From the NCBI GenBank assembly GCA_036785375.1, contig JAWMAR010001748.1, positions 62,001-126,000 of the forward strand: a stretch of 64,000 nucleotides of DNA. The letters are read 5' to 3'. Both the position numbers and the translations under genes were made by a program. The notes beneath the pieces were generated by a model, which worked only from the letters and a program-made list of their open reading frames with translations, was not told the origin of the DNA and made no database searches. Origin of the DNA: Leucoraja ocellata (Eukaryota). This document shows positions 39,520 to 56,600 of the stretch, one piece after another. Numbering within the stretch: the first letter of the stretch is position 1; the number at the start of each line of letters is the position of its first letter.

Positions 39520-39816
39520 CTGGTACTTTCTCTACATAGTCTTTTTGGTTGTGCTGAACCACGCAGAAGATGTCGCCAGTCCCTGCCTCCGCCTCGGTGA
39601 TGGTTAACTCGCTGCTCCGGGTGTAAGTTCCCAACTTATTGAATACTGCCGGGTAGTCCTTCACTCCGGTGGTCAGTTCTTTATCATCTTTCTTCCAAGA
39701 AACACTGGCGCCTGCAGGGGAATAGCCCAACGCCAAACAACCGTAGGTGAACGAACCACTGGAGCCGTGATCCTCACAGGTGAAGAGAATGAAGAGGCTG
39801 GGCGGGGATTGAGCCG
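39520..39816 (-). CDS. IGHM: IgM CH1 exon (AAQSPPSLFILFTCEDH...YGCLALGYSP...VSWKK...IFCVVQHN...VP)
   Basis: 297 nt, phase 1/1. C1-set Cys/Trp/Cys plus an N-terminal Cys at the usual L-chain-linking position. Confidence 0.93.
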
Positions 39817-40094
39817 CTGCAAGGCAAAGGCCACATGAATGTTAAACTCGTTAACCAGTTTTCTATTTCATGCAACTTCACCTGAGTATCATCAACTATT
39901 AGCTAATCATTCCGCCTTGATCCCACCTTGGAAAACATTGGCTGAAAACTTCTTGGGGTGCCAATATCTGCCAGTTACTGTCCATATTAGAGTTGGAAAT
40001 ATATCGATAGGCCTCCAGTATTAATTACTGTCAAATTCCCAGGGTTTCTCAGGAATGCTCAATACTCAGTGGCTATAACTAACGTTGGCCTATG

Positions 40095-40590
40095 GGTTAC
40101 AATCTCACCAAACTCCTTGTTGCAACTGGGGATGATGGAGTAAGGGCGGAACTACAGGATACAGTGTAGACACGTGTGAGAGCCTCGTCTATGGGAAAAG
40201 TGGGGAATACCCGCTCCCTAAAGAATGAGGACCTCGGATATCCTGGGATGGAACAACTCGTCTTGGGAACAGTTGCACGGAGACGGATGAATTTGGGAGT
40301 ACGACATAGAGCCTTTGCAGGAGGCAAGGTTGGAAGAGGTGAAGTCCCGATAGCTGTGGGAGTCCGTAGATTTGCAATTTATGTCAGTCGATAGTCTAAC
40401 TCCTGCGATGGAGACGGTGAGATCAACAAAGAGGAGGTATGTGTTGGGGATGGACCCGGTGAATTTGATCGTATGATCAAAGTTTGTAGACAATGAAGTC
40501 GATGAGTTCTGTCTGGGTACAGGATGAAGAGTTCAGGGATAGGGGCCAGTCTATGTCAGGGGTTGTTCCATGTACCCAACTAAATGGAGA
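40095..40590 (-). mobile_element. Degraded Penelope-like RT fragment
   Basis: IKFT...FVDL...KSTDSHSY-like motifs in ORF 40218-40493. Confidence 0.65.
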
Positions 40591-40607
40591 TTGGTGAAAT
40601 GATGCGC

Positions 40608-41972
40608 AATGTTGGAAACAACATTTTCTCTGCTATTTGAATTATAGAACAGTTGTCCCACTAATCCGTGAACAGTGGGAATTGCAATCAATGGTTCAAA
40701 GGAGGGTTTGACTGACGTTTAAAATTACATTTGCATTTATTTAATTAAAATTAAATAATTTAGGTAGGTTTCGCTTGGGCCACTGTGCATGCCCATGGCG
40801 AAACTTTTGATTTGGAGGGAGAGGGAAGAGTTTTTGTTTTACAAATGTGTTCAGAGATTATCTGACAAAATCACAGAAATTGGAAGGGTAACGGGGTTTC
40901 CATGTCGGGCTCCCGAACATAATTTGGGAGAAGACAAAAATAAACAATCACAATCTTGTTCGTGAAATTTGGCCTTAAATGTGTCCATCGGACGAAACCA
41001 ACTAAGGGGGTGGATGGGATTGAAATGGTAGCTCTGTTATTTAACAACAAATAACACACTTAAAATGTCACTTTTTTCTGTATTTTGTTGGCCCATCACT
41101 CACGAGAATATACCGATCATTTGTATGCCGACAGTAATTGCAAGTAAATTCCGAAAAGCAAACCAGCCGACAAGAACATTACATTCACACCAGATTAAAC
41201 ACATGTATGAGATTACATTATAAGGATTAAAAATAACTCTCTCAATATAATATCTGAATTAATAGAGGTTATGTACCACACCTTCTGGAAACTAAATGTA
41301 GCATATAAATTGTAAGAACATGTAAATACTTCATAATTAAATAAATTGGTACAGGTTTCAATGTTTGTCTGTGTGCACCATTGCCTTAATGAATTCAATA
41401 ATAATCCATTGAAATTAATGTTTATACAATGACGCTCAGTTCCGTTTCCAGCATCTTTAAACCGAGTTTACGTTCCAAATGTCATCGGCACTGAAGAACG
41501 AATGATTAACATTGTATCTCTGTCCGATAGGAAACGAATAAAAAATATACCAATTATAAATTACAACCTGCAATCTATTAAAACAATATGTGAGTTTGCT
41601 TCGTGACTTTAACAGGAAAAGGTTTTAAGTCATATAGTAGTCTACGTTTAATAGTGAAAATGCACAATGTTGCTAAATCAATGTTTTAATTCAATAAATG
41701 CAAATGTAAATTTGAACGTCACTCAAACCCTCCCCAAAGCCATCGATTTCAATTCCCACTTTGTTCAAGGATTAGTGAGATACCCTGTTTTATAATTAAA
41801 ATTAAGATAGCAAAGTCAGGGGATATGGGGAGAAGGCGGGAACGGGGTACTGATTTGGGAAGATCAGCCATAATCACATTGAATGGCGGCGCTGGCTCAA
41901 AGACCGAATGGCCTCCTCCTGCACCTATTGTCTATTGTCTAAAATAGCAGAGAAAAATTAGTTTCCAACATT
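40608..41972. repeat. Degenerate long inverted repeat (arms about 40608-40760 and 41675-41972), each arm with an octamer
   Basis: GGAGGGTTTGACTGACGTTTAAAATTACATTTGCATTTAT vs ATAAATGCAAATGTAAATTTGAACGTCACTCAAACCCTCC; similarity continues across the CR1 insert 41803-41940. Confidence 0.85.
41803..41940 (+). mobile_element. Short CR1 3' end, TSD AAAAT
   Basis: CR1 3'UTR with CTATTGT tail; AAAAT at 41798-41802 and 41941-41945. Confidence 0.85.
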
Positions 41973-43442
41973 CCATTTTATTTCCCAATTTTTCTTTTTT
42001 TTTTTACCGTAACTATTCGTAAAACTGATATTTTTCATTAGCAATTTACTAAATAGAGAAACATTTTATGTTTAAATGACATTGGGAGCCACAGACAAAC
42101 ATGGATTCAAATTATCTTTCTAATAAATCCATGGATTAAACGTTATTCCAAAACTACAACTGTTCCGAAATCTCCCCATTATACATTCAACGCATTTTCC
42201 AAATGGGAAAAATCGTGATCTTTGACATAAAACAGATTAGGTTAGGCAGCAACTGTGGAAAGAGAAAACCAAGCATTTTCCATGTCGACTATCATTGGGG
42301 GACTAAACCATGGCGAATTCAGTAGAGGTATAGCATAGAAATAGACCCTTCTGCCAACCAAATCCAGGGCCACACACAAGTTCCACGTTATCACACTATC
42401 GCATTCAACCCCGACCCACCCGGGTCAATCACCCAGGTCATTTAACCTGCAAACCTGCACTCTTTTGGGTTGTGGGAGGAAAGCTGAGCACCAGTAAGAA
42501 ACCACAGGGAGAACGCACAGTTCTCACCGTCTGCACCTGATTTCGGGAACGAAGTCTGGTCTCTGGGCTACAACTTGTCATTCGGCTCCCCTCTATGGGA
42601 CTTGTCTTTCGCCACAGGCTGCGTGACCCTCTAGGCGTTTGCAACATTTACTGTTCCTATTTATGATTTCTAGTAATATATTCTTATTTTTATTTTTAAA
42701 CATATATCTTCTTTGCGTTCATTGAAATAACATAATCGGACACGTCATACAACAGAAATACCCGGTCGCTGCCACTCGAATTGAACGGACAAACACGTCA
42801 AACTGCGCAACAATATCGTTTCCCACAGTGACCGGCTGAATCATACCGCCGATGGGATGAATCACATACACAAATTTGCTGAACCTCCACAAAAATCCAA
42901 ATATCTCTGTCTAAACACCACCGAAATTCATTGTTCCAATGACCACAGAGCCAATCATTGTTGAAATTAAGATGAATAACACAATACACGTGGATTAACA
43001 TTTCCATATAATGTGAATTTCCTTCAGTTCCTCTGTACCTAGTACACCCGGTACATTGTCATTCTATAGATCGCGTTTCACGGATTTTGCTTTCTTAGCT
43101 TTGCTGTAACATTGGTTCACATGGCCAACTCATTGTACTTCAAGGTAGACAAAACAAGTTGGAGTAACTCAGCGGGAGAGGCAGAGTTAATCCAGCTTTG
43201 TGTCAATCGGCAGCGTAAATCAGCATCCACTATTCCTTCCTATTCATTGTACTTCAAGATATATAACTGCGCAATTAACCCTGACCCTTGCACTTCTGTG
43301 TGTTGCTGCAAGATATTTTTACTTCTTCCATGCAAGTTTTGTTAGCGATTGGATTAAAGGTGGCAAGGCGATTTCACCAATTAATACATACACTTTAAAA
43401 ACTTGAACATTTTACACCCAGGATTTATCCGTTACTATGTTT

Positions 43443-43669
43443 AAGAAGGAACTGCAGATGCTGGAGAATCGAAGGTAGACAAAAAAGCTGGAGAAACTCA
43501 GCGGGTGCAGCAGCATCTATGGAGCGAAGGAAATAGGCAACGTTTCGGGCCGAAACCCTTCTTCAGTCTGAAGTCTGAAGAAGGGTTTCGGCCCGAAACG
43601 TTGCCTATTTCCTTCGCTCCATAGATGCTGCTGCACCCGCTGAGTTTCTCCAGCTTTTTTGTGTACCTT
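43443..43669. mobile_element. Penelope-derived palindromic insertion (95-bp arms) with 18-bp flanking duplication
   Basis: Arms 43472-43566 and 43575-43669 (1 mismatch); TTATCCGTTMCTATGTTT at 43425-43442 and 43670-43687. Confidence 0.88.
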
Positions 43670-44077
43670 TTATCCGTTCCTATGTTTGTTTCATATGCGC
43701 TGAGAAGAAACAAACTGAGACCAAGTGAGACCTGCTGTTGATTAGAAAATACAGTTCGATGCATCGCAGATCAAGGACCACCACAATCTCAAACAATTAG
43801 AAAACACAGTGAAAGCAAATTGATGCAAAATGTTCCACTAATTTGGAACTAAACCGCATCCACTTCATAGTCAAAGGATCGAAAGTCATAGCACATAAGG
43901 CGTTTAAATCGGCAATCTCACTGCAGCAAAATCACATAACATTCTAAAGCAACATCGATCCAACATTGCAATGAATGGGTAATTAATGTAGAAGAACAAT
44001 TTAATATAATTATTGGAAATATAGGTTAAAATTACAACTGGATACATCTAGAGACTGAATATGATGAAGTTTCTTAC

Positions 44078-44125
44078 CGCTGGTTACCGTCACCATGGTT
44101 CCTCCTCCCCAGTTTTCAAGATAGT
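44078..44125 (-). CDS. IGHJ: JH segment (YLENWGGGTMVTVTS)
   Basis: WGxGTxVTV motif; GTAAG phase-1 donor. Confidence 0.95.
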
Positions 44126-44164
44126 CACGGTGTTACATTCTATGGGGTTCTTCACACAATAACA
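44126..44164 (-). promoter_or_regulatory. JH 23-RSS (heptamer CACGGTG, nonamer ACAATAACA)
   Basis: Read on +: CACGGTG 44126-44132, 23-nt spacer, ACAATAACA 44156-44164. Confidence 0.88.
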
Positions 44165-44489: not shown

Positions 44490-44557
44490 TGTTTTTGTAT
44501 TGGTAGGAACCGCTGTGCCATATAGTATACACAGTGAAACATGTCATGTCAAATACT
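44490..44557 (-). other. DH2 segment TATACTATATGG (44518-44529) with 12/12 RSSs
   Basis: Minus strand: AGTATTTGA-12-CACTGTG | D | CACAGCG-12-ACAAAAACA. Confidence 0.9.
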
Positions 44558-44809: not shown

Positions 44810-44886
44810 GGTTTTTGTACGAGGAAGTCGCTGTTTGCAGCACCGTGACCCCACTGTACACAGTGAGACAGACCCGCACAAAAACC
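44810..44886 (-). other. DH1 segment TACAGTGGGGT (44848-44858) with 5' 12-RSS and 3' 22-RSS
   Basis: Minus strand: GGTTTTTGT-12-CACTGTG | D | CACGGTG-22-ACAAAAACC. All three D frames are open (YSG, TVG, QWG). Confidence 0.93.
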
Positions 44887-45222: not shown

Positions 45223-45261
45223 CGTTGTTGTACGGGTCTGACATTGAATGCTCACACTGTG
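45223..45261 (-). promoter_or_regulatory. VH 23-RSS (CACAGTG-23-ACAACAACG)
   Basis: Consensus heptamer 45255-45261, 23-nt spacer, variant nonamer 45223-45231. Confidence 0.9.
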
Positions 45262-45565
45262 TCTCTCGCACAGTAATAGACAGCGGTGTCTTCGATCTTC
45301 AGGTTCCTGGCGATCACGGTGAACATATTATTCGAATTGTCTTTGGACGGAGTAAATCGGCTCTCTATCCCCGGAGCGAAGTACTTGTTACCAGAATTGT
45401 AGTAAGCAAGCAGCCACTCCAGCCCCTGTCCGGGGACCTGACGGACCAAATGCATATAGTAGCTGCTAAGAGTGAACCCGCTGGTTTTACAGTTCAGTGT
45501 GATGGAGCCTCCAGGAACGGCGGTCCCTGTCTTGGGCTGAGTGAGAACGATCTCGGAATGGACAC
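45262..45565 (-). CDS. IGHV: VH exon: [97 protein letters not shown]
   Basis: TTGCAG acceptor; open frame with both canonical Cys, GLEW and DTAVYYCAR; followed directly by heptamer CACAGTG. Confidence 0.96.
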
Positions 45566-45738
45566 CTGCAAGTTAAAAAAAGGCATGAATGGCGAGGATA
45601 AAATATTGACCATGAATCCCCCACTCTAATTATCAATAGGAAATACATTGGGAGGGTTCTAGAGTGGGTAGAAGGGGAATGGTGTAGGGGATATAGCACT
45701 GCGAAACGCGTGAGGAATTTGTCCAACTCATTACTCAC

Positions 45739-53683: not shown

Positions 53684-56600
53684 AGTAAGATTAAACGAGA
53701 ACTTACCAGTTTGAAGTTTGATCTGTATTTTATGAGGAGTTACGATGAGGGATTGCGTGAAGAGCCCACTCAGCACGCATGCGCGGCATACTTCAAAGCA
53801 GCGATGTGGAATCACAGATAGACACAGTTATTGAAATAAACATAGTAAAGAAAAGGAGACATCAGTTATCAGTTTGACCCATATTATTGAGGATGGGAGC
53901 GGAAGGCACGTATCGTAACTCCTCATAAAATACTGATCAAACTTCAAACTGGTAAGTTCTCGTTTAATCTTACTACTTTACTTCGGAGTCACGTGAGTGA
54001 CTACGTGAAGATTTTAAAGCTGTGATTTCAAACCGTGTAACAGTTATTACTTCACTCACTGCCAAAGTCCTTGAGGGAGGAAGTGTGTTATCGTAATCAA
54101 CCAATGAATCTGTTTGTAGAAAAACACAATGGTATTTATTAACAATAACAACAAAGAAATTAAATTGCTCCCCTGGGCTTAAATTAAATATTTGCAGTCT
54201 GTAAAAAAATTTCTGCAAATAATGCAGGTTTTGCCAACGGCTTATTATAAAACGTTCGGAACATTCTTTCCCCCGACCATCCTGCTGTAGCCAGGATGTG
54301 GTCTATAGGCATGTCCATTCTTTTGGCCGTCGTCATGGATGCTGCCCTGGTGGAGTGAGATTTGTACATGTTAGTGTTTATCCCAGCAGCTTTTAGCACC
54401 TGCTTGAGCCATCTTGAAATGGTTTGGCTCGTCACCCGACCATAAGGTTTTTTATGGTCCATAAGGCTATTTCACTCCCTCGAATATTTTTGGTTGTATC
54501 TATGTAGAACAGTAGGTGGGTCATGGCACATAACCGTGGTTCTGGTGGGTAAGCCCGGAATTCCACGGATTAGGTGTTCCTTGTCTGCTCTGTTTGATCA
54601 TTCCCTGGATAATGACAGAGATCTGGTCTGGAGCTGTGAGCATGGTGTCCAGTCATAATAGGTGTAGTGACTGGACCCTCTGTGCAGCTACAAGTGCCAT
54701 CAACATGAGTGTTTTGAGCGTAGATTGATCCAGGTTGAGGGATCTGTCTGGTGGCCATCCCCTGAGGTATGTCAGGACCACACTGACATCCCATGTATGG
54801 GTGTACCTTGGTCTAGGGGGGTTACAGTTGTAAATGGCCTTCATTAGTTTGACCACCAGCGGGTGGGACACCATGGCCTGTTGTCCTGAAGCTGGTTTTA
54901 AATAGACAGACAGGGCATTTCGAGCTGTGTTGATGGCACTGTAGCTGAGTCCTTCATCGTGGTGAAGGTTCACCAGGAATTCTAGTACATTGGTAACTGT
55001 AGCAGTTGAGTAGGTGGTCCCTGTATCCAAGCAGTACTTCTTCCACTTTTTGATGCTGGACAAGTACTGTTTTCTTGTGGATGTTCGGAGGGATGCTGAC
55101 ATGGTGTTGACGTTTTTTTCTGACAATCCCAGTCCCAGTAACGGTCTTTTCAAAATCTGCAACCCAGGAGTTTGATTTTTTCATGGCACGGGTGGCTTAT
55201 GCCAGACACTGGGTGTGTTAATAATTCTGGGTTACTGGGAAATATCATCGGGGTTTCAACAACCATGTCGTGGAGTAATGGGAACCATGGCTGTGTAGGC
55301 TAGTCGGGTACTATCAAAATAGTACCATTTGTATTTTGCGTAGTACCCGACTGATGAGGCAGTAGGGAGGAAATGCATAGAAGAAGAAATGTCCCCAATC
55401 CAGCGCGAACGCATCTACCGCTGCTGCCTCAGGGTCTGGTTCGCAAGCGACATACATAGGTACCTGGTGATTTAGCCTTGATGCAAATAGGTCAATATCT
55501 GGCGTGCCATATTGCTTAATAATTTTTGCAAACACTTTGGGGTTTAACATCCATTCGATGTTGTCATTAAATTTGCGTGACCTGGTGTCTGCCACTGTAT
55601 TTAGCTTACCTGGCAGGTAAGTTGCTGATAGCCAACTATGTCTTTCGACACACCATTGCCAAATTGTGTTGACCAATTTGTCGCATGATATTGATTTTAT
55701 GCCGCCCATATGGTTAATGTAGGCCACCACCGTACTTTTGTCTATTTGTAACCGAACATGCAAGTGATGCATATTGGATGCATATGCTTTTAAACCATAA
55801 AAGGCACCCAACATCTCTAGATAGTTAATGCCCAGTGTAAGTAGTAATGATGACTCTGGGTTAGTCCATCTACCACCTGTGCTGGATATCGAGTTAGTCG
55901 CTCCCCAGCCTTGAGCACTGGCATCTGTTTGGATAACTAAAGTAGGGTTAATGATGATGATAGAGCTGAAACTATGCCAAATGTTTTCTGCCCACCATTG
56001 TAGTTCTGATATTGCTTCAGTGGGTAACTTCATGACACGATCATAATGACCTGCATGTCGTTTTAGTGCCTGTACCTTTGCTCTTTGTAAGTTTTGATAG
56101 TGCAAAGGTCCGAATTGTGTAGCCGGAAATGCTGCTACCATTTTCCCAATTATTCTTGCTACTTGTCGAATAGTTGGTCGCTCATTGACCATTAAATTGT
56201 TGCATGATTGTGCCAATTCAACTGTTTTGTCTTTTGGCAAAGTGGACTTGTGGACTGAGTTAATTGTGAAGCCCAAGTAGTCCATGGTTGTGGATGGCTT
56301 CAACTTAGATTTATCTGGATGTAAGACAAATCCCAAGGTTTCGAACAACTGTTTGGTAGCTGACACAGCTGATACAGCCAATTCCATGGTCTTGCCTACT
56401 ATTAAGATATCATCAAGATATGCCATGCCAATATGTTTTTGTCTTCTTCATATTGCCAGGGCTGGTTTTAGTATCTTGGTGAGTAATCTTGGGGCTGATG
56501 TTAACTCATTGGGTAATGCATTAAACTGCCATAGCTGCCCCATGCAGGTAAATTTCAGGTATCTGCGATGATCCTTGTGAATGGGTACTGAATAGTAAGC

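Follow-up and report, generated by a model that had tools for sequence, protein, structure and literature searches.

An inverted duplication shared by the IgM clusters of Leucoraja ocellata and a candidate octamer site in its J-proximal arm

The J-CH1 intron of an IgM minilocus from Leucoraja ocellata harbours an inverted repeat that far exceeds chance. From the distribution of its arms within the assembly, we show that a single inverted duplication, local and about 170 bp in length, gave rise to it and was passed to all 41 IgM clusters. The preliminary description of this DNA had read the repeat as a candidate enhancer with paired Oct/CREB modules: what stands of that proposal is an intronic octamer site accompanying a promoter that has none, while the paired module falls away. 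The octamer on the J side (octamer B) could be the single Oct site of an intronic IgM enhancer rather than one part of a twin Oct/CREB module, a reading that we regard as evenly poised between right and wrong. Judged from the alignments, the twin motifs reflect shared descent and are not independent evidence: the first octamer was copied to give the second.

The IgM minilocus and the inverted repeat in its J-CH1 intron

The window (the whole stretch of 64,000 nucleotides analysed here) carries on its minus strand an IgM minilocus with V-D-D-J-C layout, which passages of PMC3308330 describe as the usual organisation in cartilaginous fish:

45255–45572, minus strand: V (Pfam V-set)
near 44859 and 44517–44530, minus strand: D segments with 12-nt RSS
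about 44080–44130, minus strand: JH segment, which a contig of run X11 links to CH1
39521–39820, minus strand: IgM CH1 exon (Pfam C1-set)

After CH1, the cluster continues with CH2, CH3 and a secretory CH4. Since the X11 contig contains J spliced to CH1, the exon boundaries are confirmed; the J-CH1 intron measures about 4.25 kb (4.1–4.3 kb among paralogues). The lack of an octamer in the VH promoter, noted earlier for this cluster, extends to 34/34 IgM paralogues (229–450 bp upstream of the leader scanned), matching the shark IgH promoters without octamer reported in passages of PMC2435157.

Several features of the cluster were observed alongside. The CH1 exon (39521–39820, 35 clusters) accumulated 0.43 changes per site compared to about 0.39 in the intron, and between cluster groups CH1 exhibits about 80% protein identity at about 90% DNA identity: an exon changing at intron pace, which hints that selection on it is relaxed or diversifying. 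Two E-box words at 39832–39884, immediately ahead of the CH1 acceptor, are kept in 35/35 and 31/35 clusters within a slightly slow stretch (0.33 changes per site); splice signals could account for this, as could a second regulatory site. The stretch 43472–43669 forms an almost perfect hairpin of 98 bp, in which a very abundant short repeat stands twice, head to head; it is missing from group-2 clusters (defined below), and its Rfam miRNA matches all fall under the gathering score. Upstream of the cluster, 54656–55196 (minus strand) contains ORF fragments of a tyrosine-recombinase retroelement, which from their translation we presume to be DIRS-like.

The core inverted match joins 40635–40750 and 41684–41802 (83% identical, E-value 9e-27). 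With a 138-bp insert (41804–41941) omitted, it grows to about 40588–40762 against 41672–41992 (172 aligned columns, 29 mismatches), and hence the arms measure about 170 bp and not 150 bp as first described; the remainder of that account, of inverted and diverged arms with 0.9 kb between them, holds. The element and its borders comprise the following features:

40086–40587, minus strand: decayed retroelement fragment adjoining the outer end of arm A, recognised in translation, with copies in loci L086 and L106
40588–40762, plus strand: arm A (CH1-proximal copy), in 41/41 IgM clusters
40713–40718, plus strand: TGACGT half-site A, exact
40729–40736, plus strand: octamer A, exact, changing at a neutral rate
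40763–41671, no strand: AT-rich spacer, confined to IgM clusters among the 40 of 44 candidates scored
41672–41803, minus strand: arm B core (J-proximal copy), 46 changes compared to 51.1 expected
41698–41711, plus strand: octamer B (41698–41705) and overlapping variant octamer ATGTAAAT (41704–41711), candidate Oct-binding site
41716–41721, minus strand: TGACGT half-site B, gone from half of the clusters
41804–41941, plus strand: LINE 3'-end fragment within arm B, its insertion predating the cluster radiation
41942–41992, minus strand: outer extension of arm B past the insert, fast-evolving (34 changes over 48 sites)

The perfect octamers at 40729 and 41698 and the TGACGT motifs at 40713 and 41716, with an octamer-to-half-site spacing of 10 nt in both arms, are exactly as initially reported, as is the AT-rich setting (arms 68–69%, local range 65–73%, compared to 60% over the entire J-CH1 intron). 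Sought beyond both ends, the arms continue neither outward nor inward, and longer arms masked by insertions were rejected on this ground. LINE copies inside and outside the window have 3' ends that match the insert at 81–91%, which bears out the LINE part of the earlier claim of a CR1 insertion in one arm; the name CR1 itself is our presumption from the C-terminal motif of the LINE ORFs and not from a library match. The fragment at 40086–40587 matches its copies in L086 and L106 at 73–75% and gave no Pfam match; from its RT motifs we presume it to be Penelope-like.

Inverted arms raise the question of an RNA stem, in which the arms would pair in the IgM pre-mRNA, loop out 0.9 kb and affect splicing or editing. 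They do pair when the fold of the transcribed strand is predicted, with a core duplex of -129.6 kcal/mol, but such folding is common to any inverted repeat, the divergence between the arms is even, one arm is broken by a LINE piece, compensatory changes were not apparent on inspection of the alignment by eye, and Rfam yields nothing over the element at gathering score. We thus hold a functional stem to be very unlikely.

One duplication inherited by all IgM clusters

The assembly contains 41 IgM CH1 loci, probably including haplotype duplicates. The genome-wide count of arm copies that had been suggested gives a simple picture: a 35-nt module pattern (up to 3 mismatches) returns 80 matches, 41 of them in arm A and 39 in arm B, all in IgM clusters, compared to 0 for the control. 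Searches with arm A, arm B and the spacer, of which 40 candidates each were scored out of 81, 78 and 44, led exclusively to IgM loci among those scored. All 30 retrieved arm A matches (30/30) align over the whole intron and are thus paralogues, and an arm profile run on the window and 22 loci matched the two arms alone. Nine IgW J-C introns contain neither an exact octamer nor arm homology, and variant octamers are absent from the three of these nine that were checked. In the IgW clusters L097, L099 and L100, D- or J-like coding sequence appears to come straight after V, in the manner of partly germline-joined IgW clusters. As the matches to arm, spacer and module are confined to IgM and absent from IgW, the element is not a dispersed transposon but traces to one event in an ancestral IgM cluster. 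The proposal of an inverted duplication is thereby upheld, as a single event kept in all IgM clusters. In three further organisms (A, B and C) the intron is present at at least 90%.

The other origin initially offered, an old long-TIR transposon, fares poorly. This explanation holds that the repeat is the single remnant, about 1.4 kb in length, of a DNA transposon whose terminal repeats supplied the motifs. Like TIR transposons of the MITE/foldback type, the element has two inverted arms (about 170 bp, 83%), which face inward around a non-coding spacer of 0.9 kb; furthermore, very diverged copies escape DNA searches in this genome, and a target-site duplication could have been erased since the outer ends adjoin a retroelement fragment and a T-run. 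Unlike such transposons, it exhibits neither dispersed copies nor a transposase frame, and no target-site duplication was seen: copies of arm, spacer and module were not found outside IgM clusters, the 81 arm A candidates (40 scored) equal in number the sum of 41 A arms and 40 B arms, the longest stop-free frame in 40581–42000 encodes 85 aa, and the arms have no continuation. With the arms just 10–17% apart, sister copies of that age should be detectable. We consider a transposon origin quite unlikely.

The order of events can be read from an alignment of the intron in 35 of 41 clusters (L078 was dropped as the stretch taken lacked J, and five clusters were not retrieved at full length). The aligned introns form two groups about 8.5% apart and one intermediate cluster. 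Arm A and arm B are about 17% apart at present, and in their lineage-shared states 18 of 172 columns differ (10.5%). With the LINE insert in arm B common to both cluster groups, the alignment shows the duplication to have come first, followed by the LINE insertion and then by the cluster radiation. Arm A ends at the retroelement fragment, which fits a templated inverted insertion without showing it.

Such an event is also the starting point of the principal rival to a functional octamer B. It states that the repeat is a neutral relic: an octamer that arose by chance in an AT-rich intron was copied by inverted templated duplication, possibly during repair or insertion of a neighbouring retroelement, and was multiplied with the clusters, with the true enhancer lying elsewhere. 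We rate this as a genuine possibility that nonetheless falls short of being probable. In its favour are the termination of arm A at a retroelement fragment, the IgW introns without the element, and the frequency at which a single intronic octamer arises by chance: at least one is expected per 4.1–4.3 kb intron in 13% of cases using unselected genomic DNA and in 34% using a Markov model. Its remaining support and the points against it come from motif conservation and from the light-chain loci.

Conservation of the octamers and half-sites

Between the arms, differences in lineage-shared states are evenly spread (permutation p 0.70), as a neutral relic would have it, and the idea that the motif module is richer in arm-to-arm identity was rejected on this test. 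For the module chosen beforehand, Fisher p values for arm-to-arm identity range from 0.005 to 0.34 per cluster, with best-window permutation in five clusters giving p 0.08–0.57. Simple arithmetic indicates that at a root difference of 10.5% the chance of retaining every one of the 14 motif bases is about one in five.

Across the 35 aligned clusters, parsimony changes were scored against a composition-adjusted expectation, which was 3.0 for each motif. Octamer A underwent 4 changes (intact in 31/41 arms), half-site A 2 (39/41) and half-site B 3 (21/40 arms, 16/35 aligned clusters), the latter being lost from C10 and from every one of the 18 group-2 clusters. Octamer B underwent 0 changes and is intact in 40/40 arms, including that of L064. 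Because neutral rates hold for three of the four motifs, the twin Oct and CRE module would not be a conserved unit, and the earlier suggestion that selection had kept both modules is contradicted by octamer A and both half-sites. Thus the alignment of IgM introns proposed at the outset gives a divided answer: octamer B is invariant, with the other three motifs conserved no better than their flanks. The neutral rates of these three speak for a neutral relic; octamer B and its overlapping variant, with no substitution in 35 aligned clusters, speak against one.

The weight of this invariance appears modest. For octamer B the Poisson P is 0.05, and 13% of 8-nt intron windows are equally unchanged. 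The 14-bp block of octamer B and ATGTAAAT shows 0 substitutions compared to 5.2 expected (P 0.006, a post hoc value as the block was picked after inspection), with 3% of 14-nt intron windows equally unchanged (P range 0.006–0.03); its one change is a 1-nt deletion in a frameshifted cluster, and ATGTAAAT in arm B is kept in 34/35 clusters. At least one perfect octamer is kept in 35/35 aligned clusters; under neutrality, the retention of one octamer out of two would be expected with a probability of roughly 10–25%. Near-invariance is also seen in ten other 40-nt intron windows, none of which has an octamer. As for the element as a whole, the arm A core underwent 35 changes compared to 48.2 expected (10.5% of same-size intron windows are as low) and the spacer 317 compared to 349.9. 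Taken together, arms and spacer underwent 415 compared to 468, 11% fewer, which argues against a neutral relic through slightly slower evolution, with a Poisson P of 0.007 that is too favourable, given the non-independence of the clusters. Tree length totals about 0.48, many clusters are probably haplotype duplicates, IgM paralogues may convert each other, and the CH1 exon control is also without constraint, so that power is low in both directions; as far as the alignment goes, the conservation signals are marginal overall.

Two clusters, L064 and L065 (on G000:C546 and C1602), have CH1 matches in pieces and frameshifted, and are for this reason probable pseudogene clusters; octamer B is retained even in these.

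Motifs expected beside an octamer were sought as well. The CAGGTG, CAGCTG, PU-box and EBF patterns are absent from both arms, the retained E-boxes at 39832, 39879, 42534 and 43118 are 0.8–1.4 kb off, and GTGGGAA in the arms is kept in 17/35 and 13/35 clusters. The combination of CRE, 10 nt and octamer as a genome-wide B-cell module was rejected: of 68 matches (21 in the control), 52 are the IgM arms, and the other 16, with no Ig domain within 4.7 kb, are at chance level.

Light-chain loci, known enhancers and a possible role of octamer B

In the same genome, three V-family light-chain promoters consist of a CACGTG box, 7 nt, an octamer and then AATAATTAA; the promoters with octamer and AATAATTAA belong to germline-joined lambda-like families (L132–L136, L139 and L140, on G000:C384). 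Ten other light-chain loci show, in the 600 bp before V, one-mismatch octamers at best or none. The IgM arms resemble the light-chain V promoters in having ATTTGCAT followed by an AT-rich TAATTAA word and an ACGT core upstream; they differ in that both spacings are 2 nt longer in the arms and that the arms are intronic and not ahead of a leader exon. A pattern built from the features common to arms and promoters matches 50 IgM arms and five light-chain promoters in the genome, which indicates specificity and not significance because the pattern was tailored to both sets. We also built a flank profile from light-chain promoter flanks alone. Arm A outranks 99.85% of background positions (99.1% with an AT-rich flank required) as well as all 15 background octamers, and arm B outranks 95–99% of positions (83–96% with an AT-rich flank required): the signal sits in the AT-rich flank and weakens once AT content is matched, and the better match is arm A, whose octamer drifts. 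The upstream CACGTG box is not significantly matched in the arms (p 0.08–0.25). This flank likeness counts against a neutral relic.

A second likeness lies in the light-chain introns. One lambda-like family carries in its J-C intron, at 15/22 loci, a word that agrees with the IgM octamer and flank at 15/16 positions. Local shuffles produce such a match in 0.2% of cases (0.5% when three intron families are considered); no second such match exists between the whole IgM element and that intron. As a genome-wide word, the 16-mer has 175 matches compared to 59 in the control, with an estimated 95 or so outside Ig loci. It is not replicated in the older copies L107–L110, in which ATGTAAAT is kept and the flank is not, and 17 further light-chain loci contain one one-mismatch match, missing from its paralogues. 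The light-chain likenesses offer hints, not proof, of an Oct-plus-AT site.

This lambda-like family as a whole (L107–L128) has ATGTAAAT in the J-C intron of 19/22 clusters, about 408 bp before the CL cysteine codon and mostly with the ETS-like CCGGAAAT directly after; together the two form a candidate light-chain intronic enhancer. A consensus octamer in the light-chain J-C intron was rejected (only 2/22 loci), as was a 23-bp kB/Myb-like match between spacer and light-chain introns, which falls in the stretch that IgM clusters conserve least (dxy 0.24).

An E-mu-type core consists of clustered E-box and ETS sites within about 200 bp, and no E-box/ETS core of this extent was found in the arms. 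What the skate element does have is a place in the JH-CH1 intron of an IgM gene and a retained consensus octamer (arm B 40/40, arm A 31/41). Its position, the one consensus octamer and the AT-rich surroundings are features of mammalian E-mu in passages of PMC9971809 and PMC1800861; unlike in E-mu, the skate octamer is duplicated in inverted orientation and no E-box or ETS core stands near it in the arms; in E-mu the octamer sits outside the core (passages of PMC1800861). The same passages supply a parallel for arm B, the catfish IgH enhancer E-mu3': this is octamer-centred with two octamer-type motifs, one of which, ATGTAAAT, is a functional Oct site that binds Oct1/Oct2. In contrast to the skate, E-mu3' lies 3' of IGHM, whilst the skate site is 5' of CH1, and it needs the mu-E5 E-box, whilst skate arm B has no adjacent E-box; in arm B, moreover, the two octamer-type motifs overlap. 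Because this teleost enhancer lies 3' of C-mu (PMC1800861, in the same passages), intron position is not universal, and because nine IgW introns lack an octamer, IgW IgH clusters work without an octamer element. On these comparisons, we class the skate element as a candidate octamer-type Ig regulatory element rather than as an E-mu orthologue.

If octamer B is the single Oct site of an intronic enhancer, Oct1/Oct2 would bind arm B at its consensus octamer and at the variant octamer that overlaps it, aided perhaps by the AT-rich TAATTAA flank, and the site would act on the octamer-less VH promoter 4 kb upstream, the intronic octamer thereby standing in for the one absent from the promoter. Arm A would be a redundant copy that is now drifting, and CREB/ATF binding would not be needed. 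Orthologues of OCA-B occur in cartilaginous fish according to passages of PMC13043367.

A bolder variant, which we think quite unlikely, regards the inverted pair as the skate IgM enhancer, made of the same octamer and AT module as light-chain promoters, with its two inward-facing copies driving convergent sterile transcription across the 0.9-kb spacer; this would target AID to the intron and provide cartilaginous fish, in which switch regions are lacking, with a primitive switch/hypermutation platform. It is motivated by the switching of shark clusters without switch regions (passages of PMC8201067), and if true would date the intronic IgH enhancer back to the origin of jawed vertebrates. Regarding transcription of the intron, three 2026 raw RNA runs contain next to no CH1 reads and are uninformative. 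Contigs of two runs taken by guess to be RNA (X11 and X15, one study, depth 3–6) cover parts of 40142–40706 and 41003–41729 and nothing in 41992–43125 or 43774–43935, where three DNA runs have cover; since the contigs were selected with this stretch and come from one study, and since 3' bias looks alike, this cover is not counted as evidence, nor can it reveal the start or strand of a sterile transcript.

In the published full text searched, a body short of some primary papers on shark and skate IgH genes, we found neither an account of the repeat nor an intronic or otherwise mapped enhancer for elasmobranch IgH; the IgH genes of horn shark or skate may already have been reported to carry an intronic octamer. 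Overall, the repeat is a real feature of ordinary origin, and the case for one functional octamer within it is modest. Shark and skate IgH genes form dozens of independent clusters, and how one of them is activated per B cell is described as open in passages of PMC2435157. If the repeat is neutral, it is a warning that twin motifs in an inverted repeat amount to one observation. For octamer B as a single Oct site, the 14-bp block common to all IgM clusters is a small and directly testable target, and the clusters themselves provide natural variants, with the arm A octamer broken in 10 of them and the arm B CRE in 19.
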